A stretch of DNA of 64,000 bases from Candidatus Marinacidobacterium sp. (lineage in GTDB: Bacteria > Acidobacteriota > Vicinamibacteria > Marinacidobacterales > Marinacidobacteraceae): contig CBDCRI010000001.1 in assembly GCA_965220965.1 (NCBI GenBank), forward strand, positions 192,001-256,000, in the 5' to 3' direction. Both the position numbers and the translations under genes were made by a program. Every line of letters starts with the position of its first letter. The stretch's first letter is position 1. Under the pieces are notes generated by a model. The model did not search any database. It saw only the letters and a list, made by a program, of their open reading frames with translations, and was not told where the DNA came from. Of this stretch, positions 465-61,367 are shown one piece after another.

Positions 465-1448
465 TCAGGGCGAGGGCGCGCGTCCGCGCGTCCGCCCCGC
501 CCGCCGCAGGGTCGCAAGGTCCGCCTCGACCACGCCGCGGCGGACCTTTCCGAGGAAGGGGTCCCGCCGCCGAAGGGCCTCCCCGGTGCCGCCGCGGCGC
601 AGCGCGGTGCCGCGGCCCCGGCCGATGCGCCAAGCGTGGCCGTGGCCGGGGCTCTCGAGAACGGCGTCCCCATCCCCGTCGCCGCCGCGCGTGACCACGA
701 GGCTGAAGCCGGGCAGCGCCTCCGCGCGCACCAGCAGGTCGCCATCGCCGTCGGAAACGCAATCGACGCGGATTCGCCCGTGCCCGTCGGTGACGTCGAC
801 CGCCACTTCCCAATGCGCCCCGTCCGGGGCCTCGACCTCCACGCCCGCGGGCGGGCGCCTGGCCCGCGCGCCATCGCCGAACGCCACCCCCTCGAACGGC
901 CACGGCTGCTCATAGGGACTGGCCCGGAACCCGGGCGCCAGCACGTCCCGCTCCGCGCCGACGGACCGGTCGCGGTGCAGCCGGCGTATGCCGTCCCTAA
1001 GGTGCGAGCCGAGCGGCGGCAGGCCGGCCGGGCTGTCCGGGGGAAGCTCACCGCTGCGAACGGCCCGCTCCCGGTCGGCGCGCACGTCGGACCAGTCGAA
1101 GCAGATGACCTCAAGGGCCGCCGTGCCGTGCCCGGCGGATGCGACTTCGGCCCGCATCGAGACCTGGCTTCCGCAATGGCCGGGAAAGGGCTTGATGTCG
1201 GCGCTGGCCCGCAGCTCCAAGGCGGCGACCCCCCTGCCCCGGAAGTGATCGAGGACCTCGCAGGCCTCCTCGCTGAGGTGCGCCAAGCGGTCCCAGTGCC
1301 CGCAGTCGGCCGCGTCCGTCACGCCGCGGCCCATGTCGAGCACCCAGTGGGCCTCCAGGCCGCGGCCCTTGCCGGGCTCATGCCCAACCTCGCGCGCCAA
1401 GGCCTCCAAGGCGGCCCTCACGGAATAGGCTTTCGGCTCCCGGCGCAT
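465..1448 (-). CDS. hypothetical protein with Gly-rich 10-residue repeat (RxGxGxGxA) C-terminal region
   Basis: Natural amino-acid composition, TATAAT at 1486-1481 upstream, ends RGRAPSP. Confidence 0.7.
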   Translation of the reverse strand: MRREPKAYSVRAALEALAREVGHEPGKGRGLEAHWVLDMGRGVTDAADCGHWDRLAHLSEEACEVLDHFRGRGVAALELRASADIKPFPGHCGSQVSMRAEVASAGHGTAALEVICFDWSDVRADRERAVRSGELPPDSPAGLPPLGSHLRDGIRRLHRDRSVGAERDVLAPGFRASPYEQPWPFEGVAFGDGARARRPPAGVEVEAPDGAHWEVAVDVTDGHGRIRVDCVSDGDGDLLVRAEALPGFSLVVTRGGDGDGDAVLESPGHGHAWRIGRGRGTALRRGGTGEALRRRDPFLGKVRRGVVEADLATLRRAGRTRGRAPSP

Positions 1449-3024
1449 CGCGCCCGCCCCCTTCGAGATCGCTTGCGTCCATTATAGGAGCCGCCGTCCG
1501 GTCGGAGACCAGCTCGTCGAACCGCCGGTTGACCGCCGCCGGCAGGCGCCCGTCGCGGGCCACCGCCTCGATGGCGAGCGCGGCCGCTGACGCGGGAATG
1601 CCGGCCAGCCACGCCCGGGAGGGCGCGTGCGCGGCGTTGAGGTCCCCCGGCTCGAACTTCGCAAGGCCCCCTCCGTACGCGCGCTGGGTCAGCGCCAGCA
1701 GCCGGCGGCCGGCGTCGGAGAGCAGGTAGAGGAACAGCCGGTCCACCCAGCGGCGTCCGTCCCTAGCCGGCACGAAGCCGTGGTAGCAGGCCAGCGACAG
1801 CGCGCCCGCCCGGTTGAGCACCGGCTTGTACCCGCCGCGCGAGAACGTCCCGACCCACAGCGGGTCCGGCCCGTGGCGCTCCGTCCGGTGCCAGGCCGCG
1901 CGCCGGGAGGTTTGGTGGCGCAGGTGCACGCCCTCCCCCTCCCCGGTCGCGATCCGGGCAAGCGCGGCCGGCGAAGGGGGGTCCCCCGGCGCGAACAGTC
2001 GCACCCGGGCGTCCGCCGCCTCCAGCGCGCGCAGCCGCCGCCCGTCGAGCACCGGGCCCGCCACGTCGGCGCTGCGCGTGACGCACGGCAGCGCCTCCTG
2101 GCCGTCGCGCAGGCCCAGCGCGCGCACCTGCGACGGGCGCAGGGCGAAGAAGGCGTTGGCGCCGGAGACGATGCCCCGGCGGAAGCGCCCGTAGTCGCCG
2201 ATGCGGGCCAGGCCGGGGGCCGGGGCCGCCGCGGCCGGGTCGAACAGGGGCAGCCACCTCCCCGCCGGGTCGAGCCCGGCGGCCGGCTCGTCGGCCCCCT
2301 GCGGCAGGCGGCCGCCGCCGTCGAGCTCGGACAGGGCCGCCACCGAGGCGAAGCGCACCGCGCCGGCGCCCGCGCCGCGCTCGTGCAGCACGATGCCCAC
2401 CGTGGTGACCGCGTCCGGGAACGCCTCGGCCTCGCAGGCGACGCGGATCAGCGCGACCAGGCCGCCGTCCGCGAGCAGCCGCGCCTTGACCGCCCGGCCG
2501 TAGGCGGCGTTCAGGAACTCCAAGGGCATGACGTAGGCCGCCCGCCCGCCGGGCGCCAGCTCCGACAGGGACTTCACCAGGAACGCCGAGGCCATGTTCG
2601 CGTTGCCCGGCAGCGGCACCCCGGTGCGCCGCCTGATCAGCTCGATGGCGGCGGCCCGGGCGGCGAAGCCGTGGAAGCGGACGTAGGGCGGGTTGCAGAC
2701 GACGGCCTCGCGGCCCCCCTGCCCCCAATCGAGCAGGTAGTCCGCCTGCTTGACGCCGCCGCGGCCGGCGCCGCCCGGGGAGGACCGCCAGTGCGCGGCG
2801 ATGGCGGGGTCGACCTCGTGCCCGGTGCAGCGCACCCCCCGCATCCGGGCCTGGGCCTCGAAGGCGCCCAGCCCGAACGCCGGGTCGTGGAGGCTGCGCG
2901 CGCCGCCCCGCAGCGCCCAGCCGACCATGAAGCGGGCGATCGGGTCGGGCGTCATGAACTGCCCGAACCGGCGCCGGTGCGCCTCGCCGACCGAGGCGAC
3001 GTAGGCGGCTTCCGGATCCTTCAC
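1378..3024 (-). CDS. orphan N6-adenine DNA methyltransferase (Eco57I/TaqI-like)
   Basis: GQFMTP, DPAFGLGAF (motif I), NPPY (motif IV), EAFPDA, C-terminal TRD-like region. GTG start at 3024 inferred. Confidence 0.9.
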   Translation of the reverse strand: MKDPEAAYVASVGEAHRRRFGQFMTPDPIARFMVGWALRGGARSLHDPAFGLGAFEAQARMRGVRCTGHEVDPAIAAHWRSSPGGAGRGGVKQADYLLDWGQGGREAVVCNPPYVRFHGFAARAAAIELIRRRTGVPLPGNANMASAFLVKSLSELAPGGRAAYVMPLEFLNAAYGRAVKARLLADGGLVALIRVACEAEAFPDAVTTVGIVLHERGAGAGAVRFASVAALSELDGGGRLPQGADEPAAGLDPAGRWLPLFDPAAAAPAPGLARIGDYGRFRRGIVSGANAFFALRPSQVRALGLRDGQEALPCVTRSADVAGPVLDGRRLRALEAADARVRLFAPGDPPSPAALARIATGEGEGVHLRHQTSRRAAWHRTERHGPDPLWVGTFSRGGYKPVLNRAGALSLACYHGFVPARDGRRWVDRLFLYLLSDAGRRLLALTQRAYGGGLAKFEPGDLNAAHAPSRAWLAGIPASAAALAIEAVARDGRLPAAVNRRFDELVSDRTAAPIMDASDLEGGGRDAPGAESLFREGRLGGLGARGWA

Positions 3025-3059
3025 GAGGCGGGCGCCTTGCGGCCGGGGCCGCGGCGTTG

Positions 3060-3175
3060 GGGACGTGGCGGCGGCCAATGCCTGTCGGCCGCCGCCACTG
3101 GGCACTGCACCATTCGGCGGAGCCGGCCGTGGTGGGAAGGGAGGAGGGAAGCCGGCGCCCCGTGCAATGCGTGGC
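3060..3175 (-). ncRNA. candidate structured small RNA or leader RNA
   Basis: Lies just downstream of a consensus promoter. Stems GCAUUGCAC/GUGCAGUGC and GCCGGC/GCCGGC enclose a C-rich loop, followed by a 12-bp perfect hairpin (3065-3098). Confidence 0.4.
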
Positions 3176-3179
3176 ATGG

Positions 3180-3208
3180 AATATAGGCCGCGATTTTCAA
3201 TTAGTCAA
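3180..3208 (-). promoter_or_regulatory. sigma70-type promoter
   Basis: TTGACT-17 bp-TATATT in an AT-rich island. Confidence 0.75.
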
Positions 3209-3241
3209 GGCCTGTAGCGGAAGGGCCTGCCGACGCGCCGG

Positions 3242-4516
3242 CTACGGTGACGCAGGCGGCCGCGGGGACCGCCTTGCGGCGCCGCCGGGCGCGGGCGCGC
3301 CGACGGCCGGCCCGAACGCGGTGGACCAGGGCTCGGGGACTGAGAACACCTGCCCGCCCTCGGTCGGCGGAGGCACCTTGCCGGAGCCGGCCGACACCGC
3401 CAGGCCCGCGTTGAGCGGCCGGCGCCCGTGCCACGGAAGCCCCTCGGCATGGCCCACGTGGTACGCCCACCCGGCGCCCTCCCCGGCCCGTTCGGCGTTC
3501 CCCGGCCCACCGTAGCGCCCCACCGTGCCGCTGCCGGGCCCGGTTCGAACGGCGTAGCCGAATCCGCGCCCGACGAGGAACAGCCCGCCTGCCATTCCCC
3601 CGTCGAGCGTCACGTGGAGGGACTCCCCCTCCGGCAGGTCGACGATCCAGTCTCGGCCGTCCGCCTCAATGCCGACCGTCATGTACCGGCCGCCGTCCTT
3701 GGATGCGTTCAGGACGCGGGCCCCTCCCGATGCGTCCTGCGCCAGCCGCCGCAGCTGCTGCGCCGTCAGCCGAACGGCGGCCCGGGGGTCCGCCTCGCCG
3801 GGAAGGTATCCCGGCCGCCCGGCCGCTGCCGCCTCCAAGGACCAATAGGCCAGCTCGGCCTCCTCGCCCACCGCCGCCGACGGGCGCCCGCCGCACGCTG
3901 CCATGACTTCGCACTCCTCCCGCCAGCGCCGCCACAGCGGGGCCGGCACCCCCAGCCGGAGGAACTCCGCTTCCATGTCCCGCGGCAGCCGGACGCCGGA
4001 GGCGGCCACGCAAAGCGCCGCCAAGGCCCGCAGCCCGGCGCGGAGGTCCATGGCTTGCGGAAGCTCGCGGCCTTCGGCGACCGCGGCCCGCGCCCTTCCC
4101 GCCAGCGCGCTGTGGCGCGTCGCCCTCAGCAGGGCGCCCTCCTGGGTGAACCGAGCCGCCTCGGGGCTCAGCGCGGAGGCCAGCGGCGCGCCCGCCGACG
4201 AGCGGGCGCACGGGCCTTCGGGGGCCAGCGCCCCGCCCCGCAGGAGGGCGCGGGCCTCCAGCGCCATGGCGGCCACGGCGGCCCGCTCCAGCCGCTCACG
4301 GCCTTCCGCCCCCCCCAGCGGATCCCCGCCCGCGGTCGGATCGGTTGGGCGCCGGCCGGCGGCCACCGCATCGTGGACGAAGCCGCCGCCGAGGAGGCGC
4401 CCGGGGCCGTTGAGGAGCGCCATGGCCACGCCGAGCGCCTCGGCGGCCTTCGCGCTGGCCAGCCGGGCCAGCTCCTGGGCGTCGGCGTCGGGCCGCCCCT
4501 GTTCCGAGTCCGTCAT
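3242..4516 (-). CDS. hypothetical protein with Gly-rich 10-residue repeat region
   Basis: AAGGA RBS before ATG 4516 (MTDSEQG). Contains YAVRTGPGSGTVGRYGGPGNAERAGEGAG; ends RSPRPPASP. Confidence 0.7.
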   Translation of the reverse strand: MTDSEQGRPDADAQELARLASAKAAEALGVAMALLNGPGRLLGGGFVHDAVAAGRRPTDPTAGGDPLGGAEGRERLERAAVAAMALEARALLRGGALAPEGPCARSSAGAPLASALSPEAARFTQEGALLRATRHSALAGRARAAVAEGRELPQAMDLRAGLRALAALCVAASGVRLPRDMEAEFLRLGVPAPLWRRWREECEVMAACGGRPSAAVGEEAELAYWSLEAAAAGRPGYLPGEADPRAAVRLTAQQLRRLAQDASGGARVLNASKDGGRYMTVGIEADGRDWIVDLPEGESLHVTLDGGMAGGLFLVGRGFGYAVRTGPGSGTVGRYGGPGNAERAGEGAGWAYHVGHAEGLPWHGRRPLNAGLAVSAGSGKVPPPTEGGQVFSVPEPWSTAFGPAVGAPAPGGAARRSPRPPASP

Positions 4517-4684
4517 TGGGTTTCCTTGTCCTTGGCCGAGGCGGTCCGCGGCGGCGTTGCCTGAATTAAAGCGGCCCGCCCCCGAATCGGTCCCTGGGCC
4601 GGGCCGGAAGGGGGCGCGAAGCGGACGGGGAGGCCTTCCCGTCGCGGCCCCTATAATCGCCCACCCAGCCCGACGCGGAGGGCG

Positions 4685-5314: not shown

Positions 5315-6913
5315 ATGCCAACCTCAACGCGCTGGCTGTTCTACGACCTGGAGACCACCGGCCTGTCGCCGCAGCACGACCAGGTGCTCGGCTTCGCCTG
5401 GATCCTGACCGACGACCAGCTGGAGCCCTTGGAGCGCAGGGAGGGCGTGGTGCGGGTGCGGCCCGACGTGATCCCGACGCCCGGCGCCGCGATGGTCCAC
5501 GGCCTGTCGCCCAAGGACCTGCAGGCGCGGGGCGTCTCCGAGGCCGACTTCATCGCCGCCTTCCAGACGCGCCTGCTGAGCCAGCAGGGGGCGCACCGCG
5601 TGCTGGTCAGCGGCTACAACACGATCGCCTTCGATGACGAATTCATCCGCCACACGCTGTGGAGGAACCTGCTGCCGCCCTACGACCACGAGTGGCGCGG
5701 CGGCAACGCCCGCTGCGACGTGTACCACATGGTGCAGCTCGCCCACGCCTGGGAGCGCGGGCTGGCCTTCTCGGCCAACGCCGACGGCCGGCCCGACATG
5801 CGCCTGGTGGCCGTGGCGCAGGCCAACGGCATCGACCTGTCCGACGAGGCCGCCCACGACGCGCTCGCCGACGTCGAGGCCACGGTCGCGGTGGCGCGGC
5901 GCATCCGCTCCGAGGCGCCCGAGCTGTTCCGGCTGGCCACCACGGCGCTGACCGACAAGAAGGGGCTCAAGCGGCTGCTGTCCCACGCCAACGTGCACGG
6001 GCTGCCCGTCTGGATGACCTCGCGCAAGCTGCCCGGCGGCGGCTCCCTGGTCTACCCGCTCTGCCTGGATCCGCAGAACCTCAACAAGTACTACGCGGTC
6101 GACCTGAACCGTCCGTGCGACGACCTCCTGGAGGCCGATCCGGCCACCATCCGCGAGAACGTCTTCAAGCGGGCCGCCGAGCGCTCCGCCACGGACCCGG
6201 TGATGCCCTGCGTCTCCATCGAGTGCAACCGGATGCCGATGGTTGAGGCGTTCGAGCCCGACTCGCCCGCCCACGTGGCGCGCGCGGCCCGCTTCGGCCT
6301 AGACGTGGCCCGCTGCGAGGAGAGCCTGGCCCTGCTCGCCGACCGCCAGTCCTCGCTGTCGGCGCGGCTGATCGAGGCCCATGACTCGTCCCACCTGCCG
6401 CCGCCGGCGGACCCGGCGTACGGCGGGCTGTACAGCGGCGGCTTCGTCAGCGACGTGGACCGCCAGGGCCTGGAGGCGCTGCGCGGCCCGCTCTTCCTGG
6501 GCGGCCCGCCGCGGATCGCCAGCGCCGACCTGCGCGCCTACTGGCCCGGCAACGCCGACCCGCGCCTGTACGCCCTGTCGCTGCGCCACAAATGGATCGA
6601 GCACGGCCGCGCCGCCCTCGCCGACTTCCCCGACGAGGGCGGCGACTTCGCGCGCTTCCTCTTGGACCGCTTCTTCGGCGACGGCCCCGACGGCATCCCG
6701 CGGCTGGCCGCCTTCCGCCAGGAGATGGCCGAGAAGCGGATCGCGCACGCCAACGACCCGCGGCGGCTGCAGGTGCTCAACGAGCTGGAGGAGCACGTGA
6801 TGGGGCAGGCCCGGCGCGTGCGCGCCTTCGCGCAGCGCTGCGGGGTGGGCTCCGAGCCGCAGTCCGCGCCCAGGGCCGCCGGCGGCCGTCCGTCGCCCGG
6901 GCAGGCCGCCTGA
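5315..6913 (+). CDS. sbcB: exodeoxyribonuclease I (3'-5' ssDNA exonuclease)
   Basis: DEDDh motifs FYDLETTG, GYNTIAFDDEFIR, AHDALADV, plus ExoI-like WRNLLPPYDHEW and LYSGGF. Confidence 0.88.
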   Translation: MPTSTRWLFYDLETTGLSPQHDQVLGFAWILTDDQLEPLERREGVVRVRPDVIPTPGAAMVHGLSPKDLQARGVSEADFIAAFQTRLLSQQGAHRVLVSGYNTIAFDDEFIRHTLWRNLLPPYDHEWRGGNARCDVYHMVQLAHAWERGLAFSANADGRPDMRLVAVAQANGIDLSDEAAHDALADVEATVAVARRIRSEAPELFRLATTALTDKKGLKRLLSHANVHGLPVWMTSRKLPGGGSLVYPLCLDPQNLNKYYAVDLNRPCDDLLEADPATIRENVFKRAAERSATDPVMPCVSIECNRMPMVEAFEPDSPAHVARAARFGLDVARCEESLALLADRQSSLSARLIEAHDSSHLPPPADPAYGGLYSGGFVSDVDRQGLEALRGPLFLGGPPRIASADLRAYWPGNADPRLYALSLRHKWIEHGRAALADFPDEGGDFARFLLDRFFGDGPDGIPRLAAFRQEMAEKRIAHANDPRRLQVLNELEEHVMGQARRVRAFAQRCGVGSEPQSAPRAAGGRPSPGQAA

Positions 6914-6983: not shown

Positions 6984-7601
6984 TCAAGGGGCGGGGGCGC
7001 GCCTCCCGCGCCGGCGCCCCGCGCCGCCGGGCGCCCGGGCCAAGGCCGCCTCGCTGCGCTCCAGCAGCGCCCGCGCCTCGTCGCGCAGCGCGTCGTGGGC
7101 GCGGGCCAGGGGGCTGCCCGGCGGGCCGTCGTTGGTCAGCGCCTCGTCGATCAGGAGCCGCTTCTCCGCGAGGTAGACGCGGGCGAAGCGGGGGTCGTGG
7201 GCGACGATCGAGTGGGTGTTGTCGATCAGGTCGGCCAGCTTGACCAGCTTGGCGCGGGGCTCGGCGCCGGCCAGGCGGCGCCGGTCGATGGCCTTGCGCG
7301 CGGCGCGGTTGCCGTCCTGCGGGCGCGAGGCGTCGGTCAGGTGGGCCACCAGGCGCGCCACGTGGGGCCCGAGGCCCGACCCCGCAATCTCCGCCTCGGT
7401 CATGGCGGTGTCCTCGATGACGTCGTGCAGCAGGGCCGCGCAGGCGCTGTCCCGGTCCGGGAAGACGGCGATCACGCGCTTGGCGACGGCGATCGGGTGC
7501 TCGACGTAGGGCTCGCGCGTGTACTTGCGCACCTGCCCCGCGTGCGCCCGCACCGCCATGCGCAGCGCATGCGCCACCGAGGGCTCGGCCGCCGGTCCCA
7601 T
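6984..7601 (-). CDS. HD-domain hydrolase, SpoT/Mesh1-like
   Basis: AHAGQVRKYTREPYVEHP, AALLHDVIEDT, VKLADLIDN. Start codon uncertain. Confidence 0.85.
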   Translation of the reverse strand: MGPAAEPSVAHALRMAVRAHAGQVRKYTREPYVEHPIAVAKRVIAVFPDRDSACAALLHDVIEDTAMTEAEIAGSGLGPHVARLVAHLTDASRPQDGNRAARKAIDRRRLAGAEPRAKLVKLADLIDNTHSIVAHDPRFARVYLAEKRLLIDEALTNDGPPGSPLARAHDALRDEARALLERSEAALARAPGGAGRRRGRRAPAP

Positions 7602-7705
7602 GGCCTTGGCCAGGGACAGCAGCTCCCGGCCGGCCTGGCCCGCGCCGGCGTCCTCGACGGGGCGCTGCGGCGGTTGGGACGGGGGGCGGCCCCCTTTGGC
7701 GTCGC

Positions 7706-8614
7706 TCAGTCGGTGCACAGGCAGTCCATCTCCTGCTCGCCCTCCCCGCCGCCCTGCGCGAACGCCTCCGCGAACAGGTCTTCGGACTGCGTGGCGATGC
7801 GCTTCAGCTCGCTGTAGGAGTGGCGCGACGAGAAGCGCGCGGTCTCGGGGCCGCGCATGGCGCGGCCCGCGGCGTCCTTGGCGATCAGGCGCTCCTCGTT
7901 GATCCACCAGTCGGCGAGGTGCGGCTCGGCGCGGATCACCGACAGCAGGTGGCGGCGGCCCTTGAGGAAGCAGAGCGTGCAGTTGCTCAGCTCCGAGGGG
8001 ATGCCCAGGTCGAAGTTCTGCCGCGCCCAGAACGCGTCCACGTCGGCGCGCGCGACCCGCTGCACGACCAGCGGGTAGTCCGACGTGCAGCCCGCCGGGT
8101 TCATGAGGTGCCGGCGCCAGCGGGCGGGCTCGTCGTGGCGGATGCCCAGGACGTTGCGGACCCGCTCCTTGGGGCGGCCGAGGACGCGCGAAACGTAGCG
8201 CTGCGCGGTCATGACCTTCAGCTCCGCCGTGCACTTGCGCATCACCGCGTTGGGCAGGATCCGCGCCGCCCTGTTCAGCTGCGAGAACGGCTCCCCCGCC
8301 CGGCTGGCGGTCTCGAAGCCGACGCGCTCGACATCGTAGACCCACTCCCCCTCCCCCGGGCTCTCCCGGTGCCGGAACTCGAGCCAGTGGACCTCCATCC
8401 CGGCGCGCTCCTCGATGTCGCGCACGAAAGCGTACGTCTCCTCGCGCTCGAGGCCGGTGTTGCAGAACACCACCGCCGCCCGCTCCGCGGGGATCTCGCC
8501 GCCGTTGGCCGCCTGGATGCGCATCGCCATCATCGCGGAGGAGCGCCCTCCGGAGAGGTTGATGGTGCGGAAGCAGCCGTCGTCCGGCAGCTCGTAGCCC
8601 GGCATCGGCATCAC
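7706..8614 (-). CDS. PAPS-reductase-like (PP-loop) protein, phage/plasmid type
   Basis: SGGRSS PP-loop, FCNTGLE, CTAELK, GIRHDE, NCTLCFLK, terminal CLC. Confidence 0.85.
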   Translation of the reverse strand: MMPMPGYELPDDGCFRTINLSGGRSSAMMAMRIQAANGGEIPAERAAVVFCNTGLEREETYAFVRDIEERAGMEVHWLEFRHRESPGEGEWVYDVERVGFETASRAGEPFSQLNRAARILPNAVMRKCTAELKVMTAQRYVSRVLGRPKERVRNVLGIRHDEPARWRRHLMNPAGCTSDYPLVVQRVARADVDAFWARQNFDLGIPSELSNCTLCFLKGRRHLLSVIRAEPHLADWWINEERLIAKDAAGRAMRGPETARFSSRHSYSELKRIATQSEDLFAEAFAQGGGEGEQEMDCLCTD

Positions 8615-9076: not shown

Positions 9077-10048
9077 TCACGGCCGCGGGAACCCCGCCCC
9101 GGCGGGTCGCGGGGCCGGCGCGCCCAGCGGCCGCCCCTGCGGGTCGAAGGCGGCCTCCATCCGCCGCTCTACGACGTGGCGGCGCAGCCACACGCGCCGC
9201 TCCACGACGATCGCGCCGGCCGCCCCGGCGGGCGCGCGCACGCAGACCCTGACCCGTCCGCCGTCGCCCCGGATCCAGTCGTGCAGCGCACCCTCCGCCA
9301 CGTCGAGCATCGCGCGGGCCAGCGGCGTCGCCGCGAACGCCGCCTCCCTCTCCGCGGCCCCGGCGTCGGACGGGCCGGCGGACGCGCCCCCGGCTCCCAC
9401 CTCCAGGCCGTCCAGCCAAAGCTCCTCGCCCGCCCCGATGAAGGTGGCCTCGATCCGAGCCTCGCGCCCTGCGGGGAGGCCCGCCCGCAGCTCGCCGACG
9501 CCGGCCTGGATGGCCCGCGCGGCGCCGGGGCCGAGGTCGAGCTCGTCGGTGCCCGGCACCGGCGCCGCCGAGCCCCTGGGGATGGCGGTCGAGTGCGCCG
9601 CGCCGGGCCTGGGGACGACGAAGCGCTCGGCCGTGCGGACCGCCGACAGCGAGACCGCCCCGTCTGGCACGGACACGGTGACGGCGAGCGTCCCGCCACC
9701 GCCCTGCTCCAGGCCGTCGAGGTCCGGGCGCTCCTCGATCAGCCGCCAGGCCAGGTCGGCGGCGCGCTCGCGCATGGCCTCGGTCTCGCCCTCGGCAAAG
9801 CCCGGCTCGTCGGACTCCACGTCCATCGGCCCGCCGTCGTCGCGCCAGCGGGCGGCGCGCCCGCCGAAGCGGCAGGAGACGCGCTCCACCGCCCCCTCGT
9901 CGCCGAAGCCCGACCAGTGCACGGTGACCGTCTCCGGCGGCGCCGGGCCGTAGGCGGCCGCGACCTCCGCCAGCAGCGCCCGCAGCGCGGCGTGCGAGGC
10001 CCCGCGCCTGGCGCGGTCCACGGCCTGCGTCCCTTGCCTCTCCTCCAT
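9077..10048 (-). CDS. hypothetical protein, possibly two DUF6878-like domains
   Basis: VHWSGFGDEGAVE...GGGGTLAVTV and a second EATFIGAGEE...GDGGRVRV unit; ends FPRP. Confidence 0.55.
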   Translation of the reverse strand: MEERQGTQAVDRARRGASHAALRALLAEVAAAYGPAPPETVTVHWSGFGDEGAVERVSCRFGGRAARWRDDGGPMDVESDEPGFAEGETEAMRERAADLAWRLIEERPDLDGLEQGGGGTLAVTVSVPDGAVSLSAVRTAERFVVPRPGAAHSTAIPRGSAAPVPGTDELDLGPGAARAIQAGVGELRAGLPAGREARIEATFIGAGEELWLDGLEVGAGGASAGPSDAGAAEREAAFAATPLARAMLDVAEGALHDWIRGDGGRVRVCVRAPAGAAGAIVVERRVWLRRHVVERRMEAAFDPQGRPLGAPAPRPAGAGFPRP

Positions 10049-14599: not shown

Positions 14600-14693
14600 G
14601 GGGCCATTGTACAATCCGGCGGCCCGGCGGCCCCGCGCGACGCCCGGCCGCTATAATGGCGGCAGCCCCGTTGCGCGCCGGAGGGAGCGCCCC

Positions 14694-53054: not shown

Positions 53055-53347
53055 GGCCCCCCCAACGGCGCGGGGGCGCGCCCGGCCGACGGCGGGCGGG
53101 GCCGCGCGCCGGGCCTCGGGAAGCGCTCCGCGTAGCGCAGGGCGCTCTCGATCGCCTCCCGCGGCAGCTCCGGGAAGTCGTCCATGAGGTCCTCCACGGT
53201 CTCGCCGCCCAGCAGGCGGGCCTGGACGTCGTAGACGGTGGCGTTGGTGCCGGCGAGCGTGGGGGCCCGGCCCTCGGCGGCGGACGGGACGGCGAGGAAC
53301 CGCCAAGGCCCGGCGCCCGGGTCGGGCTTCGAATTCGGTTGCTTCAT
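53051..53347 (-). CDS. DUF433-family protein
   Basis: G..PTLAGT..TVYDV..L.GGET.EDL..DFPEL..EAIESALRYA. Confidence 0.8.
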   Translation of the reverse strand: MKQPNSKPDPGAGPWRFLAVPSAAEGRAPTLAGTNATVYDVQARLLGGETVEDLMDDFPELPREAIESALRYAERFPRPGARPRPPSAGRAPAPLGGP

Positions 53348-53465: not shown

Positions 53466-53738
53466 TCACTCCCCGCCGCCGAACATCGCCGCCCACTCCT
53501 CGGCCAGCGTCCCGGTGATGAGGAACTCCAGCTGGTCGGCGTCAAGCTCCGGAAAGGCCTCCTGCGCCAGCAGGTCGGTCCCGGCGTAGAACCCGCGCAC
53601 CCGCTCCGCGGACACGGGCAGCTCCAGCGCGTTGATGCGGCCGGTGGCGCCCGACCTGGCGGTCACGCGGACGGCGGAGGGACCGATCGGCTCCACCGAA
53701 ATGGGCGGGGTTGGGGAGGACAGCATGGGCGCGCTCAC
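53466..53738 (-). CDS. small phage-type hypothetical protein
   Basis: LAQEAFPELDADQLEFLITGTLAEEW; GTG start coupled to the upstream stop. Confidence 0.65.
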   Translation of the reverse strand: MSAPMLSSPTPPISVEPIGPSAVRVTARSGATGRINALELPVSAERVRGFYAGTDLLAQEAFPELDADQLEFLITGTLAEEWAAMFGGGE

Positions 53739-54478
53739 GGGGCGGGCGCCTTGCAGGCGGCCGGCGGGGCCAGCTCCCGCGACAGGCCGTCCAGCACCCG
53801 CTCGACCTTGGAGAGGTCGAAGTGCCCGTCGGTGCGCACCCCCGCCTCCATGTCGAACCAGACCCGCGCCCCCGCCCGCTCGGCCTGGCGGGCCATGTCG
53901 GCGATCCGGCGGACCTGCCCGGCGTCGGGGCCGAGCCCGCCGGCGTACCCCCAAGCGCGGCCCTCGCACCACGCCCCCTTGCCGGGGGCCGGCGGGTCCG
54001 GCCATGCGCCGGACAGGCCGCGGCCGCCGGAGCGGTCGTGCAGCGCCTCGAGCTTGCGGTGGTGCAGGAAGAGCGTGTCGAAGCGGTTGCCGCGGTACTG
54101 GACCACCACGCGCTGCGCGGCGGTCGCGTCGCAGAAGGCGCCCACCTTGGCGGGGTCGTAGTCCTGCGGGCGCAGGTTGAGCTGCACGCGCGGCACGCCG
54201 ATCCGCTCTATGAAGTCGTGCACCCACGTCTCGCCCGCCATCGCCCCCCGGCTCCAGCGGCCGCACAGGTGCAGCGCCGTGCGCGGCAGCGTCATGGCCG
54301 CCGCCTCCACCACCGGCTGGCACGGGAAGCGCCCGGAGTCCGCGGAGCGGCTCACCCACGTGGACGAGCCGACCAGGACGCCGAACTCGACGGGCACCGC
54401 GGAGGCCTCGGCGATGCGCCGGGCCCGGGCCAGGTCGGTGCGCTCGTCAACGCCGGTGAAGGTGATGCACTCAATCAT
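53735..54478 (-). CDS. TrpF-like TIM-barrel protein
   Basis: ITFTGVDE, EFGVL, LHLCG, RVQLN, LHDRSGGRG, GYAGGLGP, WFDMEAGVR. Confidence 0.75.
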   Translation of the reverse strand: MIECITFTGVDERTDLARARRIAEASAVPVEFGVLVGSSTWVSRSADSGRFPCQPVVEAAAMTLPRTALHLCGRWSRGAMAGETWVHDFIERIGVPRVQLNLRPQDYDPAKVGAFCDATAAQRVVVQYRGNRFDTLFLHHRKLEALHDRSGGRGLSGAWPDPPAPGKGAWCEGRAWGYAGGLGPDAGQVRRIADMARQAERAGARVWFDMEAGVRTDGHFDLSKVERVLDGLSRELAPPAACKAPAP

Positions 54479-54614: not shown

Positions 54615-55928
54615 ATGCCAAGCCCCGCCGCCCAAGACCGCGCCCGTTCCGGCAGCCCCGCCCTCCTCCGCGACCATGCCGAGGGCGCAGCGGCGGCGCC
54701 GGCGGGGCAGGATGCGGCCGGCCAGGGCGCAGCGCCCCTGCCGGAGGGCTGGCTCGGCCTGGAGGTCGGCGAGACGGCGCTGCTCATCGCGGCCAAAAGC
54801 GGCTGGCTCCTGCCCATGCCGCGCCAGCAGGGCCGCCCGCTGCTGCAGGGCGGGTTCGCCCGCCACGCCGAGGACCGCGTGGCGGGCGACGAGTGCTGGG
54901 TGCGCCTGGCCCTCGACCCCGACCGGCTCTGGACGGCGCCCGTCGGCGCCTCGGGCCACGAGGACGGAACGTGCGCGTCCGCCGTGCCGGCGGGGGCCGG
55001 CCGGCTCGACTGGGTGGCGCCGATCCCGCTGTCGGCCGTGGCCGCGGTGGAGGTGGACGAGCGGATGCACCCGGGGAACTTGCGGATGCTGATCCGCCAT
55101 GGCCTCAAACTCTCGCTGCCGGAGGACGTGGCTGCGGCGAACCCGCGGGCGTCCGTCACGCTGCCCTGCGAAGCCCAGCGGGGCGGCTGGCGCCTGCCCG
55201 CCGAGCTCAACGAGGTCCAGGGGGCGATGTCGGCGGCGGTCTGGGCGGCGTGGGACGCGCTGCCGGAGGACCGGGCGCGCAGGGACGCCGTGCTCAGCGC
55301 CATGGCCGGCGAGGGGGAGTCCCTCTCGCCCACGGCCCCCTGGCTGCGCCCGCCCTGGCTTGCGAAGGAGGTCTCGGCCCGGCCGTCGCCGGAGCGTGCC
55401 CTGTGGAGCAACGCGCCGCACGTGCTGCGGTCCAGTTGGCGAGCGGACGCCGCGCTCGAGCGGGTCGGCCACCACATGGAGGCTGCCGGCGATGGCGGGC
55501 GCGGGCGCGAGTGGACGGCTTGGGCCAGGGCCGTCCTGAGCGGCGAAGTCACCGTCTTCGAGCACGAGCTGGTCCCCGCCGCGAGCGGCCCCGGCCTGGC
55601 GGTGATGGTCGCGCTGCTGAAGAACGACTTGGAGGGACTGGGCCAATTCGTGCGGGAGTGGGGTGGCGACGGCACGCTCTTCAAGCCCGGCAGTCCCTGG
55701 GCGGATGCCGTCCTCGGCGCCGCCGTGCTCCTCGGATGGGGAAAGGGCTTCTCCTTGATCTCGGCGGACCTCCGGGGCGACGCGATGCGCCGCGAGGCCG
55801 TTGCGCGGCTGGCCATGGCGGCATCCTGGGACCAGCCGGGGGAGCCTCCGGCGCCCGCCGGGCGAGCGGCCGCACGGCCAGGCAATCCCCAAAGGCCGCG
55901 CGGCCCCGCGGGCTCGCCGGGCCCATAA
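54615..55928 (+). CDS. hypothetical protein, copy 1 of a tandem triplication
   Basis: GGAGG RBS, TATAAT at 54575; ends GSPGP. Confidence 0.8.
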   Translation: MPSPAAQDRARSGSPALLRDHAEGAAAAPAGQDAAGQGAAPLPEGWLGLEVGETALLIAAKSGWLLPMPRQQGRPLLQGGFARHAEDRVAGDECWVRLALDPDRLWTAPVGASGHEDGTCASAVPAGAGRLDWVAPIPLSAVAAVEVDERMHPGNLRMLIRHGLKLSLPEDVAAANPRASVTLPCEAQRGGWRLPAELNEVQGAMSAAVWAAWDALPEDRARRDAVLSAMAGEGESLSPTAPWLRPPWLAKEVSARPSPERALWSNAPHVLRSSWRADAALERVGHHMEAAGDGGRGREWTAWARAVLSGEVTVFEHELVPAASGPGLAVMVALLKNDLEGLGQFVREWGGDGTLFKPGSPWADAVLGAAVLLGWGKGFSLISADLRGDAMRREAVARLAMAASWDQPGEPPAPAGRAAARPGNPQRPRGPAGSPGP

Positions 55929-56144: not shown

Positions 56145-57455
56145 ATGCCACGCCCCGCCGCCCACGACCGCGCCCGTTCCGGCAGCCCCGCCCTCCTCCG
56201 CGACCATGCCGAGGGCGCGGCGGCGGCGCGGGAGGGGCAGGACGCGGCCGGCCAGGGCGCAGCGCCCCTGCCGGAGGGCTGGCTCGGCCTGGAGGTGGGC
56301 CAGATGGCGCTGCTCGACGCGGCCGAGGGCGGCTGGCTGCTGCCCATGCCGCACCAGCAGGGCCGCCCGCTGCTGCAGGGCGGGTTCGCCCGCCACGAGA
56401 GGGATGAGGTGGAGCGCAACGAGCACTGGGTGCGCGTGGCCCTCGACCCCGACCGGCTCTGGACGGCGCCCGTCGGGGCCTCGGGCCACGAGGACGGAAC
56501 GTGCGCGTCCGCCGTGCCGGCGGGGCCCGGCCGGCTCGACTGGGTGGCGCCGATTCCGCTGTCGGCCGTGGTCGCCATGGAGGTGGACAAAGCGGAGCAG
56601 GCCGCTCGGCTAAGGGGGCTGATCCGCCATGTCCCCAACCTCGCGCTGCCGGAGGACGTGGTTGCGGCGAACCCGCGGGCGTCCGTCACGCTGCCCTGCG
56701 GAACCATGCGGGGCGGAGGCTGGCGCCTGCCCGCCGAGCTCAACGAGGTCCAGGGGGCGATGTCGGCGGCGGTCTGGGCGGCGTGGGACGCGCTGCCGGA
56801 GGACCGGGCGCGCAGGGACGCCGTGCTCAGCGCCATGGCCGGCGAGGGGGAGGCCCTCTCGCCCACGGCCCCCTGGCTGCGCCCGCCCTGGCTTGCGCCG
56901 GAGTTCGCGCCGCGGCCGTCGTGGGAGCGCGCGCTGTGGAGCAATGCGCCGCACGTGCTCCGGTCCACCACGCTTGCGCTCGAGGCGGTCAAGCGGCTCG
57001 CCCACCACATGGAGGCGGACGGCGACGCCGGGAGTGCGCGCGAGTGGGCGGCATGGGCGGAGGCCGTCCTGCTCGGCGAAGCCAGCGTCTTGGAGCACGA
57101 GCCGGTCCCCACCGCGCGCGGCCCCGGCCTGGCGGTGATGGTCGCGCTGATGCAGGTCGACATCGACTCGCTGCACTGGTGGGCGTGGCGTCGAGACGAC
57201 ATCGACCTCGAGCCCGGCAGCCCTTGGGCGGACGCCGTCCACGGCGCCGCCGTGGCCATCGGATGGGCGAAGGGGTTCGCCTTGACCCCAACGGACTTCC
57301 GGGGCGACGCGAAGCGCCGCGAGGCCGTCGCGCGGCTGGCCATGGCGGCGGCCTGGGACCAGCGGGGCGAGCCCCCGGCGCCCGTCGGGGGAGCGGCCGC
57401 GCGGCCGGGCAATCCCCAAAGGCTGCGCGGCCCCGCGGGCTCGCAGCGCCCATGA
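56145..57455 (+). CDS. hypothetical protein, copy 2
   Basis: Near-identical blocks to copy 1; TATAAT at 56104. Confidence 0.8.
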   Translation: MPRPAAHDRARSGSPALLRDHAEGAAAAREGQDAAGQGAAPLPEGWLGLEVGQMALLDAAEGGWLLPMPHQQGRPLLQGGFARHERDEVERNEHWVRVALDPDRLWTAPVGASGHEDGTCASAVPAGPGRLDWVAPIPLSAVVAMEVDKAEQAARLRGLIRHVPNLALPEDVVAANPRASVTLPCGTMRGGGWRLPAELNEVQGAMSAAVWAAWDALPEDRARRDAVLSAMAGEGEALSPTAPWLRPPWLAPEFAPRPSWERALWSNAPHVLRSTTLALEAVKRLAHHMEADGDAGSAREWAAWAEAVLLGEASVLEHEPVPTARGPGLAVMVALMQVDIDSLHWWAWRRDDIDLEPGSPWADAVHGAAVAIGWAKGFALTPTDFRGDAKRREAVARLAMAAAWDQRGEPPAPVGGAAARPGNPQRLRGPAGSQRP

Positions 57456-57735: not shown

Positions 57736-59076
57736 ATGCCACGCCCCGCCGCCCACGACCGCGTCCGTTCCGGCAGCCCTGCCCTCCCCCGCGACCATGC
57801 CGAGGGCGCAGCGGCGGCGCGGGAGGGGCAGGACGCGGCCGGCCAGGGCACAGCGCCCCTGCCGGAGGGCTGGCTCGGCCTGGAGGTGGGGGAGATGGCG
57901 CTGCTCATCGCGGCGAAAAGCGGCTGGCTCCTGCCCATGCCACACCAGCAGGGCCGCCCGCTGCTGCAGGGCGGGTTCGCCCGCCACGCCAAGGACCGCG
58001 TGGCGCGGGACGAGTACTGGGTGCGCCTGGCCCTAGATCCCGACCGGCTCTGGACGGCGCCCGTCGGCGCGTCCGGCCACGAGGACGGAACGTGCGCGTC
58101 CGCCGTGGCGGCGGAACCCGGACGGCTCGACTGGGTGGCGCCGATTCCGCTGTCGGCCGTGGTCGCCATGGAGGTGGACGACCGGACGCACGCCGAGGAC
58201 TTGCGGATGCTGACCCGCGACGTCCCCAACCGCTTGCTGCCGGCCGCCCCTGTGACGGTGAACCGGCGGGCGTCGGTCCCGCTGCCCTGCGAAGCCATCC
58301 GGGGCACCGGCTGGCGCCTGCCCGTCGAGCTCGACGAGATACAGGGGGCGATGTCGGCCGCGGTCTGGGCGGCGTGGGACGCGCTGCCGGAGGACCGGGC
58401 GCGCAGGGACGCCGTGCTCAGCGCCATGGCCGGCGACGGGGAGGCCCTGTCGCCCACGGCCCCCTGGCTGCGCGCGCCCTGGCTCGCGCTGGACGGCCCT
58501 CGCCCACGCAAGCCCTGGCTTGCGCAGGAGTTCGAGACCCGCCCGTCCCCGGAGCGCGCGTTGTGGAGCAACGCGCCGCACGTGCTCCGGCACAACTCGC
58601 CAGCGCGCGTGGCGGTCGAGCAGCTCACCAGGAGAATGGTCTCGGCCGACGAGACTTGGAGTGGGCGCGAATGGGGGGCGTGGGCGCGGGCCGTCCTGCG
58701 CCCCGACGGGCCTGGCTTGGCGGTGGCGGTCGCGCTGCTGCAGGACGACCTAGACGGACTGGGCCACTTCGCGCGGGCGTGGGGCCGCGGCGGAATCAGC
58801 CTCGAGCCCGGCAGCCCTTGGGCGGATGCCGTCCTCGGCGCCGCCGTGCTCATCGGATGGCGGAACGGGTTCGCCTCGACCCCGGTGCGCCTCCGGGGAG
58901 GCGCGAGGCGCCGGGAGGCCGTGGCACGGCTTGCAATGGCGGCCGCCTGGGACCAGCGGGGCGAGCCGCCGGCGCCGGTCGGGGGAGCGTCCGCGCGCCC
59001 CCGCGGGACCGCTGAGCCCATGACCCCGCCCCGCCCTGCCCCGTCTCCGCTGGACCGAGGCAGCCCGGCCCCCTAG
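57736..59076 (+). CDS. hypothetical protein, copy 3
   Basis: Near-identical blocks; TATAAT at 57696; ends RGSPAP. Confidence 0.8.
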   Translation: MPRPAAHDRVRSGSPALPRDHAEGAAAAREGQDAAGQGTAPLPEGWLGLEVGEMALLIAAKSGWLLPMPHQQGRPLLQGGFARHAKDRVARDEYWVRLALDPDRLWTAPVGASGHEDGTCASAVAAEPGRLDWVAPIPLSAVVAMEVDDRTHAEDLRMLTRDVPNRLLPAAPVTVNRRASVPLPCEAIRGTGWRLPVELDEIQGAMSAAVWAAWDALPEDRARRDAVLSAMAGDGEALSPTAPWLRAPWLALDGPRPRKPWLAQEFETRPSPERALWSNAPHVLRHNSPARVAVEQLTRRMVSADETWSGREWGAWARAVLRPDGPGLAVAVALLQDDLDGLGHFARAWGRGGISLEPGSPWADAVLGAAVLIGWRNGFASTPVRLRGGARRREAVARLAMAAAWDQRGEPPAPVGGASARPRGTAEPMTPPRPAPSPLDRGSPAP

Positions 59077-59113
59077 AATCGCCCTCCCGCCGCAACCCAA
59101 GGCCGCGAGAGCA

Positions 59114-60275: not shown

Positions 60276-60389
60276 CGCCCCGCCCCACTCCGGGGCGCGC
60301 GAGCGGTCCCGTGGCGCGCCCGGCAAAACCGGCCAGGGGCGCCGGCAGCGGCCAAGCGCCTCGGCCGAACGAAAACTGGTATAATACGA

Positions 60390-60680
60390 ATGACAGACCG
60401 ACGGATCAGGGCAGGCGAGCCAATGGGCCCAGCAACGTTGAAAGCGACCGCGTTGTCCGCATTCGAGCGGTACGCGAAGCATGGCGACCGCGGCGGGCTG
60501 CCGGAAGCCGACGCCGACGGCTGCGCGGCGGCGTGGGACGCGATGGTCGCGGCGAACGCCGGCTACCGCCTGCGCTCGGTCGGTGGCGCGGCGTTCGGGC
60601 GCTGCGACCTGACCGCGTACCAAGGGCCGGTCAGCGAATTCGTTTTTGAGAGGGAGGCGGCCGGAGGGCCGCCTGCATGA
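60390..60680 (+). CDS. small hypothetical protein
   Basis: Directly after TGGTATAAT (60377); start at 60390 or 60423. Confidence 0.5.
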   Translation: MTDRRIRAGEPMGPATLKATALSAFERYAKHGDRGGLPEADADGCAAAWDAMVAANAGYRLRSVGGAAFGRCDLTAYQGPVSEFVFEREAAGGPPA

Positions 60681-60699
60681 GCGTTTGGGGAGGTTGGCA

Positions 60700-60906
60700 A
60701 TGACAGACGCCGTCGACGAGATCATGGCTTACGCCCAAATCAAGGATCTGTCCGGCGAGGACGGCGGCGTGGTGGCCGTTGTCGATCCGGACAGCGCCGG
60801 ATACGCGGCGCTCCCAAGCCGCCTGCGAGGCTACGGAGACGATGCCGAGTCCGCCGAAGCCGATCTGCGATGCGCTGTTGAGCACGCGCTGGCCAGCGAC
60901 GACTAG
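60700..60906 (+). CDS. short HicB-like protein
   Basis: GGAGG RBS; IKDLSGEDGGVVAV.DPD...GYGDDAESAEADL..AVE. Confidence 0.5.
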   Translation: MTDAVDEIMAYAQIKDLSGEDGGVVAVVDPDSAGYAALPSRLRGYGDDAESAEADLRCAVEHALASDD

Positions 60907-60926
60907 GCTGGCAAACAGGCCGCCAA

Positions 60927-61367
60927 ATGAAAGCGATCATCAACGCATCAGCGCTCAAGGCGTTGACGACGGAGCAGGCGCTCGAAGTCGCGAAGCGCGA
61001 GCATTCCCGCCACGTGGGAATCGAAACGGAATACGGCAAAGCCTGGATAGTGACGGACGGCGGTAACGCACGCGAACGGGAACGGGTAGCGGACGCCATT
61101 CTCGCCGCCGACCGACGGGCGAACGAGCCGAACGTGATCGCCGCCGGGCCCGCGCCGGCCACGCAGCGCCAGCGCGACTATCTCGTTCACCTGATCGCGG
61201 AGGACCAAGGCGCGGCGACTGGATTCGGCGTTGCCCAGGGACTCCCCGAGAGCCTGTCGAAGCGGGAGGCCAGCCGCCTGATCGACAAATTCCTCAAAGC
61301 AGCGCAGGAGGACAGGGAGTGCGCAAGGAGCGACCCCAAGCCTGCCCGGCCTGCCAGCCCGGGCTGA
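60927..61367 (+). CDS. hypothetical protein with PATxRQxxY...SKxEASxLID motif
   Basis: Motif shared with 31552-31767; ends PKPARPASPG. Confidence 0.7.
   Translation: MKAIINASALKALTTEQALEVAKREHSRHVGIETEYGKAWIVTDGGNARERERVADAILAADRRANEPNVIAAGPAPATQRQRDYLVHLIAEDQGAATGFGVAQGLPESLSKREASRLIDKFLKAAQEDRECARSDPKPARPASPG

Follow-up and report, generated by a model that had tools for sequence, protein, structure and literature searches.

Why do so many unrelated proteins encoded on one stretch of DNA end in proline? The stretch studied here (the window) is 64 kb long and covers positions 192001-256000 of the second contig, C2, of the two-contig genome of Candidatus Marinacidobacterium sp. An original prediction, made from the letters of the window, had described an element at window positions 465-61367 whose proteins share a basic C-terminal tail that ends in Pro, often in Pro-x-Pro (P-x-P), and had proposed a sorting signal for conjugative transfer or a stability tag. 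We found that these Pro and P-x-P ends (referred to as the tag below) are a property of the whole 363,302-bp replicon and not of an element of ~61 kb. Judging from sequence comparisons, the tail is a protein-level short linear motif, a probably disordered extension ending in [A/G/S]-Pro-[S/A/G]-Pro-COOH that is kept by selection on soluble proteins of the plasmid.

Distribution of Pro-x-Pro ends

C2 has a GC content of 73.4%, as compared to 71.3% for the chromosome (C1; 2,884,672 bp), and GC in 4-kb blocks of the window ranges from 0.66 to 0.78, with most blocks at about 0.76. At such GC every frame is full of long open reading frames (ORFs; the window has 257 of at least 100 residues), and we therefore wrote our own gene caller, a codon log-likelihood model trained on long ORFs of the same genome. 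It called 59 genes in the window, 264 on the remaining C2 and 2250 on C1. Because the frame of a called ORF fixes its stop, the C-termini are independent of the choice of start, and 5 out of 6 predicted proteins were found with identical ends in a public protein collection (exact look-up). C2 is circular: a leucine-rich-repeat (LRR) gene crosses the contig junction, which is also spanned by a 448-residue protein in the database.

By our gene calls, 27/59 window proteins end in Pro and 18/59 in P-x-P, which matches the earlier hand counts (27 and 18 among ~60 proteins). The tag is not a feature of positions 465-61367, as had been proposed: outside the window, 95/264 C2 proteins end in Pro and 51/264 in P-x-P, so that the whole replicon has 122/323 and 69/323, respectively, as compared to 216/2250 (9.6%) and 35/2250 (1.6%) on the chromosome. 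The window differs from C1 in both (Fisher test, p=2e-12 for terminal Pro and 5e-17 for P-x-P) and does not differ significantly from the remaining C2 (p=0.18 and 0.08); the window and the remaining C2, each compared to C1, give p values between 1e-12 and 1e-30. With the stricter terminal pattern P-[SAG]-P, 62/323 C2 proteins match, versus 13/2250 C1 proteins.

The pattern reaches beyond the last residue. Pro frequency on C2 is 0.38 at position -1, 0.10 at -2, 0.32 at -3 and 0.12 at -4; the residues before each Pro (-2 and -4) are A, G or S, and Arg is enriched from -5 to -11. The most frequent ends are PSP (28), PAP (22) and PGP (12). A further 15 C2 proteins have near-tags, in which P-[S/A/G]-P is followed by 1-3 extra residues, and the near-tag ends that had been noted earlier (PSPGQAA, PAPG, PPPGM and ASPG) were each found on a called window protein. 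The Pro-ending and near-tagged proteins of the window are as follows (window coordinates, strand, product and C-terminal residues).

465..1448, minus: 327-aa protein, no Pfam family, ...RGRAPSP (P-x-P)
3242..4516, minus: 424-aa protein, no Pfam family, ...RPPASP (terminal Pro)
5315..6913, plus: Exonuclease I-like protein, near-tag ...RPSPGQAA (P-S-P and four residues)
6984..7718, minus: HD_4 / RelA-SpoT-type hydrolase, 244 aa, ...RRAPAP (P-x-P)
9077..10048, minus: 323-aa protein of a 6-member C2 family, ...GFPRP (P-x-P)
12821..14614, minus: RecJ-like exonuclease (DHH, DHHA1, RecJ_OB), ...AGAAP
14694..15341, plus: 215-aa protein, ...RSPDP (P-x-P)
15451..16107, plus: 218-aa paralogue of the 14694..15341 product, ...PAPGP (P-x-P)
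16245..16553, plus: 102-aa protein, ...PSPAP (P-x-P)
16570..20412, minus: 1280-aa protein, lipoprotein-like N-terminus, ...AVGP; among the few exported-looking proteins that end in Pro
24169..24450, plus: 93-aa protein, ...ARDP (terminal Pro)
30851..31417, plus: 188-aa protein, hydrophobic N-terminus, ...DLPGP (P-x-P)
31764..32144, plus: 126-aa protein, ...GAPGP (P-x-P)
34918..35388, plus: 156-aa protein, weak coding score, ...AAGGP (terminal Pro)
37029..37985, minus: 318-aa truncated ribonucleotide reductase relative, ...AAPGP (P-x-P)
38054..38623, minus: 189-aa protein, ...APPGP (P-x-P)
38758..39753, minus: 331-aa truncated ribonucleotide reductase relative, ...ASPSP (P-x-P)
39884..40318, plus: DUF3310 protein, ...RGPRP (P-x-P)
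40346..40996, plus: 216-aa protein, ...LGPSP (P-x-P)
41138..42499, plus: 453-aa protein, near-tag ...RAPAPG
47791..49398, plus: 535-aa member of a 26-member Cys-containing LRR family, ...PSPSP (P-x-P)
49440..50018, minus: 192-aa protein, near-tag ...APPPGM
50298..50804, minus: 168-aa protein, ...SAPAP (P-x-P)
50883..51386, minus: 167-aa paralogue of the 50298..50804 product, ...PGAAP (terminal Pro)
51441..53054, minus: RNB-domain (RNase II/R-like) protein, ...RRRARP (terminal Pro, very basic tail)
53051..53347, minus: 98-aa protein, ...PLGGP (terminal Pro)
53735..54478, minus: 247-aa protein, ...KAPAP (P-x-P)
54615..55928, plus: 437-aa protein of a 3-member family, ...GSPGP (P-x-P)
56145..57455, plus: 436-aa paralogue in the same family, ...GSQRP (terminal Pro)
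57736..59076, plus: 446-aa paralogue in the same family, ...GSPAP (P-x-P)
60927..61367, plus: 146-aa protein, near-tag ...RPASPG

Tags are found on unrelated families, as had been described earlier, and behave as an amino-acid-level feature. Carriers on C2 include diverse enzymes, among them nucleases (RecJ and the RNB protein), helicases, the HD hydrolase, a NUDIX hydrolase, an N6 methyltransferase, Cse2 (the small subunit of a type I-E Cascade) and a PIN toxin together with the small ORF upstream of it. Untagged are RepA, both NrdJ copies (whose Cys-rich ends are required), an SSB-like protein (ending in DDDLPF), DnaE, ParM, a sigma factor and the identified secretion parts; the earlier observation that RepA and NrdJ go without the tag therefore holds for RepA and for both NrdJ copies. 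In the window, tags are more common on proteins without a Pfam family (16/24) than on those with one (4/16; p=0.02).

We note that the two full class II ribonucleotide reductases with Cys-rich tails lie at window positions 20709-23417 and at L032:12178-14742, and that the two truncated derivatives (~320 aa; 37029-37985 and 38758-39753) have acquired P-x-P ends. Besides the HD hydrolase (6984-7718), the window encodes a 345-aa adenylosuccinate-synthetase-like protein (35408-36445, plus strand), which scores 258 bits with a short PurA model and 211 bits with PurZ (2-aminoadenine pathway), both below the cut-off.

Two properties separate the carriers from other proteins. The first is the tail itself: its hydrophobic-poor part has a median of 21 residues in P-x-P proteins, as compared to 6 in other C2 proteins and 3 in C1 proteins (disorder of the tails was judged from composition only), and the last 15 residues of Pro-ending C2 proteins have a mean net charge of +1.6. 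The second is localization. Among C2 proteins with transmembrane- or signal-like segments, 5/73 end in P-x-P versus 64/250 of the others (p=3e-4), and 16/73 end in Pro versus 106/250, which bears out the earlier claim that most Sec-exported proteins are without the tag; the protein at 16570, named earlier as an exported-looking exception, indeed has a lipoprotein-like N-terminus and a Pro end. Long tails do not bring the tag with them on the chromosome: among proteins with hydrophobic-poor tails of at least 15 residues, terminal Pro and P-x-P are found in 36/345 and 7/345 C1 proteins versus 76/138 and 51/138 C2 proteins. The reader of the motif, or whichever factor favours it, is tied to the plasmid lineage and not to the host cytoplasm at large.

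Controls and selection on the protein ends

The counts were compared to several backgrounds. Shadow ORFs (uncalled ORFs of at least 60 codons) end in Pro in 70/493 and in P-x-P in 6/493 cases in the window, and in 379/2383 and 67/2383 cases on the remaining C2, i.e. 14-16% and 1.2-2.8% on C2. Called genes are well above this background (1-3% for P-x-P). Gene families do not account for the excess: after collapsing paralogues by clustering protein bodies without their last 25 residues, C2 has 242 families with a family-weighted terminal Pro of 32% and P-x-P of 14.5%, and among its singletons 62/209 end in Pro and 25/209 in P-x-P. Three GC-matched replicons are at background, namely a megaplasmid in the same host family (G013:C2, 71% GC, 240 of 308 kb sampled; terminal Pro 13/205, P-x-P 2/205), an Azospirillum plasmid (68% GC, 50 kb sampled; 4/37 and 1/37) and the M. 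extorquens AM1 megaplasmid (68% GC, 150 kb sampled; 11/125 and 4/125). Tag density shows no dependence on local GC along the replicon (Spearman -0.13, p=0.62), and the GC-richest blocks are the least tagged. Terminal Pro is encoded by all four Pro codons (CCG 33, CCC 32, CCA 11 and CCT 8, with a single gene counted for each family and the LRR family, where CCC TCC CCC TGA is frequent at gene ends, set aside). Shadow ORFs, GC-matched replicons, local GC and the use of four codons together speak against a compositional or annotation artefact of GC-rich DNA.

Explanations at the level of DNA or RNA were also tried and rejected. The 50 in-frame codons after TGA, TAG and TAA score as non-coding on both C2 and C1 and give no indication of stop-codon recoding or read-through. 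Stop-context matrices and 12-mers gave no common DNA word at the stops, and no downstream bases are conserved. Overlap with terminators or hairpins was rejected, as tagged genes have minimum free energies and pairing profiles (positions -30 to +70) similar to those of untagged genes (p=0.11). On C2, the tag is unrelated to stop codon type, strand, protein length, gene GC and the orientation of the downstream gene. As an aside on stop usage, TAG terminates 23/59 window genes and 431/2250 chromosomal genes.

The C2 pattern also differs from general C-terminal preferences. Bacterial C-terminal biases, as described in passages of Weber et al. 2020 (PMC7246954), are modest, genome-wide and single-position, whereas the C2 motif is 33-fold enriched, replicon-specific, multi-position and placed on added tails.

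Homologous proteins were then used to ask how the ends evolve. The LRR family comprises 26 Cys-containing proteins encoded in tandem arrays across the contig junction (L023:1-8034; L024, C2:339429-359166; C2:359252-363302; and window 47791-49398), and 18 of them end in P-x-P. In an alignment of 16 of these paralogues, both terminal Pro columns are invariant, while the preceding linker varies from ~4 to 25 residues and is not conserved in sequence. Metagenomic relatives of the family have a DUF6745 C-terminal domain in its place and other ends.

In a collection of 5.8 billion proteins, terminal Pro is present in all three of the nearest HD hydrolase homologues (67%, 56% and 56% identity), on tails of unrelated sequence, and in 13 of the remaining 116 homologues. 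The closest one (P0139, from a metagenome, 67% identity) ends in ...GPSP and is encoded on a 242,680-bp contig, which is likely a sister element of C2. The RecJ-like C2 protein extends ~12 residues past the end of the listed homologues (the best of which are 41-48% identical), and 11 of the 120 proteins listed, query entry included, end in Pro. The LRR alignment and the ends of the HD and RecJ homologues show that the terminal amino acids are under purifying selection and indicate that sister elements exist. Four Pro codons, fixed paralogue ends, hydrophobic-poor tails and depletion in membrane proteins together show selection of the motif at the protein level.

The replicon and its relatives

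C2 has little in common with the chromosome (at E<1e-10, a C1 homologue exists for 16/323 of its proteins). It has replication genes of its own (RepA_C, a ParM-like protein, DnaE, two DnaB-type helicases and SSB) and encodes RtcB, an RNA ligase and other RNA-repair genes. The original prediction had invoked VirD4-type coupling proteins, and the rest of the replicon was scanned for a type IV secretion system (T4SS). Single-family searches first suggested that C2 has none: VirD4 (PF02534) and VirB4 (PF03135) gave no match, and FtsK_SpoIIIE matched the chromosome alone. Protein-by-protein scans revealed a type IVB system. DotA/TraY was identified by TIGR04346 (202 bits, cut-off 100), and a 799-residue coupling protein by PF10412 (26.3 bits, cut-off 20.5) and PF12696 (24.5 bits, cut-off 22). 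The coupling protein scores 295 bits against NF041447, under the 800-bit cut-off of that model, and many of its matches, including plasmid relatives, are annotated as IcmO-like. Further type IVB matches include DotH/IcmK, DotD and TraI families, two T2SSE ATPases and a DsbC-like TrbB candidate. According to these profile matches, C2 carries a type IVB (Dot/Icm-type) secretion/conjugation system with an IcmO/DotL-like coupling protein. A T4SS and a coupling protein are thus found on the same replicon, as had been anticipated, and the coupling protein is IcmO/DotL-like, with no match to the VirD4 family. HK97 capsid and Terminase_6N families had no match in the whole genome, and S41 peptidases were found on the chromosome only.

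The coupling protein is 42-50% identical to homologues on Pseudomonas (pMPPla107) and Vibrio megaplasmids (~0.9-1.2 Mb) and 37-40% identical to those on Bosea and Rhizobium megaplasmids. Records of the coupling-protein family also include 14 Roseomonas plasmids. C2 and pMPPla107 (typed as MPF_I in its database record) have the same gene order of ParM, a 447/455-aa protein and the coupling protein, with 30% identity for ParM and 27% for the 447/455-aa protein (E=1e-29). C2 resembles megaplasmids of this type also in having RecJ/DHH, RecQ, RecD-like helicases, an A24 peptidase and RtcB; it departs from them in its lesser size (363 kb), its much higher GC and its host, which lies outside Proteobacteria. 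Given its circularity, size, RepA_C and shared backbone order, C2 is a pMPPla107-like MPF_I megaplasmid.

The host itself belongs elsewhere: its RpoB reaches no more than 60% identity to the best named matches, which are Acidobacteriota genomes. The coupling-protein family was found in 2 out of 301 genomes of the host's class (source genome included), and relatives of RepA, RecJ and the coupling protein are proteobacterial, RecJ being closest to gammaproteobacterial RecJ (41-48% identity). Rarity in the host class, few C1 homologues and proteobacterial relatives therefore make C2 look like an immigrant from a proteobacterial megaplasmid pool. Near relatives of C2 were not found: there was no DNA match in the plasmid collection, related genomes gave DNA matches of chance size only, neither the chromosome nor 30 related genomes had a match (E<=0.001) to the RecJ-like protein, the LRR family had none in 30 related genomes, a single-protein metagenome scan was empty, and a scan of viral contigs with the closest HD homologue gave distant matches only.

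Among the pieces sampled from other megaplasmids, P-x-P ends were shared with C2 by Bosea sp. RAC05 pBSY19_1 only (62% GC; five pieces, 241.6 of 708 kb), which has annotated DotD/TraH, IcmT/TraK and DotI/IcmL genes and a coupling protein of C2's family. Out of 236 sampled pBSY19_1 genes, 36 end in Pro and 22 in P-x-P, versus 21/2048 shadow ORFs for P-x-P; compared to pooled GC-rich controls (3/242), the odds ratio is 8.2 (p=5e-5). Pro frequency is 0.15 at -1, 0.08 at -2, 0.23 at -3 and 0.08 at -4 (0.056 overall). As on C2, proteins with hydrophobic segments are depleted of the tag (0/68 versus 22/168 of the others, p=7.5e-4), and tagged proteins include a guanylate kinase, a GNAT enzyme and an AbiEii toxin with its partner. 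The tagged Bosea tails are acidic (-1.3) and short (7.5 residues in the median), so the basic character described in the original prediction is true of C2 and is not the conserved part of the motif. The motif recurs across phyla within pMPPla107-type plasmids, in weaker form in Bosea, without being universal among them.

An alignment-based scan gave 80 loci with coupling proteins of 35-48% identity, whose flanks have P-x-P ends in 1/782 genes below 45% GC and in 8/201 genes above 55% GC. The control by flanks is weak because C2's own coupling protein has just 2 genes with terminal Pro among the 21 within 10 kb on either side. A pattern-density screen (CCNKCNCCNTGA) of 401 genomes of the phylum picked out families with high counts and was rejected as not specific: genes were called on the only two flagged pieces large enough (28 and 11 genes), with P-x-P ends in 0/28 and 0/11. 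On pMPPla107 (L050:11878-19703), four adjacent hypothetical proteins end in ...DLGL and are probably paralogues with a conserved C-terminus of their own.

Other cargo of C2 includes genes for type I-E CRISPR-Cas proteins (Cse2, Cas7/CT1975 and Cas5; L030:15572-19542 and neighbours, C2:155572-160276), with Cas1, Cas2 and a Cas3-like helicase elsewhere on the replicon; Cse2 ends in ...GDPSP, and two of the CRISPR-Cas neighbours end in ...PAPAA and ...APAPE. A nine-tRNA array (Lys, Arg x2, Ser x4, Ala and Tyr) lies at L032:15965-16943 (C2:271965-272943); two 91-nt tRNA calls elsewhere on C2 fall inside genes and are probably false. About 2.2 kb upstream of the window is a fragment of a release-factor-1 (RF1) gene (L031:9154-9834, C2:189154-189834), which matches RF1 from about residue 105 on, lacks the N-terminal domain and has one in-frame stop; it keeps GGQ and reads PAN in place of PAT, the codon-recognition tripeptide of the chromosomal copy. 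A 360-aa protein with PDZ and M48 HExxH peptidase domains is encoded on the minus strand at L034:12962-14044 (C2:308962-310044), has a lipoprotein-like start and ends in ...PPAPGR.

What may read the motif

Since the proteins of the host chromosome are without the motif, its reader is expected to be plasmid-encoded. We tentatively favour a plasmid-encoded machine, most plausibly the IcmO/DotL-like coupling complex, because complexes of this kind are known to read disordered C-terminal signals. In this proposal, the coupling complex of C2's type IVB system would recognise the free P-x-P end on its flexible linker and pass the marked proteins to the secretion channel, and a large set of plasmid proteins would be delivered along with the DNA or before it. 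Dot/Icm signals that have been described contain Glu-rich blocks and a hydrophobic residue near -3. A strict Pro-x-Pro-COOH end, which C2 and Bosea share, is not among the described features. The C2 motif resembles the signals read by DotL-DotM-DotN in its place on soluble proteins, within ~20-35 disordered residues at the C-terminus, in marking many unrelated proteins that are often orphans or contain repeats (hundreds in the Dot/Icm case), and in the type of system, as C2 has DotA, DotD, DotH and an IcmO/DotL-like coupling protein. That Dot/Icm systems move hundreds of proteins, and that T4SS substrate signals are C-terminal and disordered, is in part general knowledge and in part taken from the abstract of PMC5802825. 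Unlike Dot/Icm substrates, the carriers on C2, which are putative substrates, are encoded on the conjugative plasmid itself and include enzymes of defence and DNA metabolism. A second comparison is with the Arg-rich signals of VirB/D4 systems (type IVA; Agrobacterium and Bartonella), which the C2 tails resemble in being basic (+1.6 over the last 15 residues) and unstructured; unlike them, C2 is type IVB with no PF02534 or PF03135 match, and the Bosea tails are not basic. We know of no terminal Pro rule for VirB/D4 signals.

The sorting signal of the original prediction stands in part: the tag is real at the protein level and C2 has a type IVB system. Several observations weigh against a coupling complex as the reader. 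No relaxase was found in searches with PF03432 or PF07514. The tagged proteins include odd cargo (Cse2, the N6 methyltransferase, the PIN toxin and its partner ORF, and NUDIX) and amount to a third of the replicon's proteome, which is very large for a set of substrates. Tail charge is opposite on the two plasmids (+1.6 on C2, -1.3 in Bosea), and the 15 near-tags fit a stop to trimming or a decaying motif better than a receptor for a free Pro carboxylate. Related megaplasmids are at or near background, with P-x-P in 0/47 proteins of pMPPla107, 0/51 of the Vibrio megaplasmid, 1/37 of pANAM02 and 2/44 of pRlX5 (one piece sampled from each), and the M. extorquens AM1 megaplasmid given above (4/125) has a coupling protein of the same family. 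Full-text literature searches gave no description of a replicon-wide Pro-x-Pro C-terminus, and to our knowledge no T4SS signal has a strict Pro-x-Pro-COOH end.

A wider form of the proposal, which we regard as possible if doubtful, is that the motif is a replicon-encoded address label that separates the plasmid's soluble proteome, a third of it marked, from host proteins, on behalf of a plasmid-borne machine. The reader would then be the type IVB coupling complex working at an unprecedented scale, or an unrecognised one; marked proteins would be moved, gathered or spared as a set, and the label would be common to distant megaplasmids in different phyla.

Alternatively, the motif may be a stability cap, an explanation we consider rather unlikely. 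Pro near the terminus is a classical block to exopeptidases, and Pro at -1 and -3 could block carboxypeptidases or dipeptidyl-carboxypeptidases, or hide the end from AAA+ proteases that read C-termini, thereby protecting flexible tails that serve another purpose such as nucleic-acid affinity. Such a cap would suit the presence of the tag on functionally unrelated soluble proteins (Cse2, the methyltransferase, toxin-antitoxin parts and nucleases), its association with long hydrophobic-poor tails (medians of 21 versus 6 and 3) and the near-tags, which could still stop trimming. In comparison with SsrA-type and other C-terminal degradation tags, the C2 motif would likewise be a short C-terminal peptide that decides the fate of a protein; unlike those tags, which have non-polar ends (...LALAA in the host tmRNA tag), it ends in Pro next to small residues and is encoded gene by gene. 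However, chromosomal proteins with equally long tails live in the same cytoplasm and are rarely tagged (7/345 versus 51/138 on C2), the tagged Bosea tails are short, and we know of no cytoplasmic carboxypeptidase pressure in this host.

It is unlikely, in our judgment, that the tails are an inherited house style with little present function, i.e. that a previous host or plasmid lineage gave rise to them, for instance through a local quirk of termination or proteostasis or through repeated 3' extension of young genes, and that they have been kept by descent. The foreignness of C2 to its host agrees with this: few C1 homologues (16/323), a coupling-protein family in 2/301 genomes of the class with the source included, and proteobacterial relatives of RepA, RecJ and the coupling protein. 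So do the preference of tags for proteins without a Pfam family and the codons, as 58/336 of the last four codons of tagged genes end in A/T where ~21 are expected. Descent alone does not explain why terminal Pro is invariant in 16 diverged paralogues despite variable linkers, why the closest HD-hydrolase homologues keep it on different tails, or why membrane proteins are depleted of the tag on two plasmids, and shadow ORFs and GC-matched replicons are at background.

A different plasmid-encoded reader seems quite unlikely. Here the docking partner of the marked proteins would be some other C2 product, such as the PDZ-M48 metalloprotease described above, a chaperone, or a scaffold in the vicinity of the plasmid. 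Free C-termini are bound by PDZ domains, one of which C2 encodes in fusion with the M48 HExxH peptidase, and the replicon specificity of the tag argues for a plasmid-borne reader. The PDZ-M48 protein, possibly a reader of C-termini, should act outside the cytoplasm because of its lipoprotein-like signal, whereas the tagged proteins look cytoplasmic, and no further candidate was seen among the families listed (25/40 and 25/35).

Lastly, an effect on translation termination, in which Pro in the P site before the stop slows release and the pause serves coupling, mRNA protection or dosage, is very improbable: C-terminal Pro stalls termination in E. coli and C-terminal Pro bias differs between clades (passages of PMC7246954), C2 has the RF1 fragment and the tRNA array, and the gap downstream of tagged genes is longer (median 72 versus 37 nt in untagged genes, p=0.014), but the signal reaches -3 and -4 and includes a tail of ~20 residues, varies with protein localization, does not depend on stop codon type, strand or downstream gene orientation, and comes with no coding signal beyond the stops and no extra RNA structure, and the release-factor gene is broken by its in-frame stop and lacks its N-terminal part.

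Giant conjugative megaplasmids consist mostly of orphan genes, and how their products are handled is the gap that this motif addresses. Gene by gene, a terminal motif separates the plasmid's soluble proteins from chromosomal ones ~33-fold, which gives an experimental handle, and a weaker form is present on a second megaplasmid in another phylum. Should the coupling complex turn out to be the reader, the motif would define a substrate signal that is new and easily predicted, and conjugation would be able to carry over a large payload of protein. Should the motif instead serve for stability or self-marking, it would give a mobile element a new means of managing its proteome in a foreign host. 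Under either reading, the motif can be tested by short peptide swaps.

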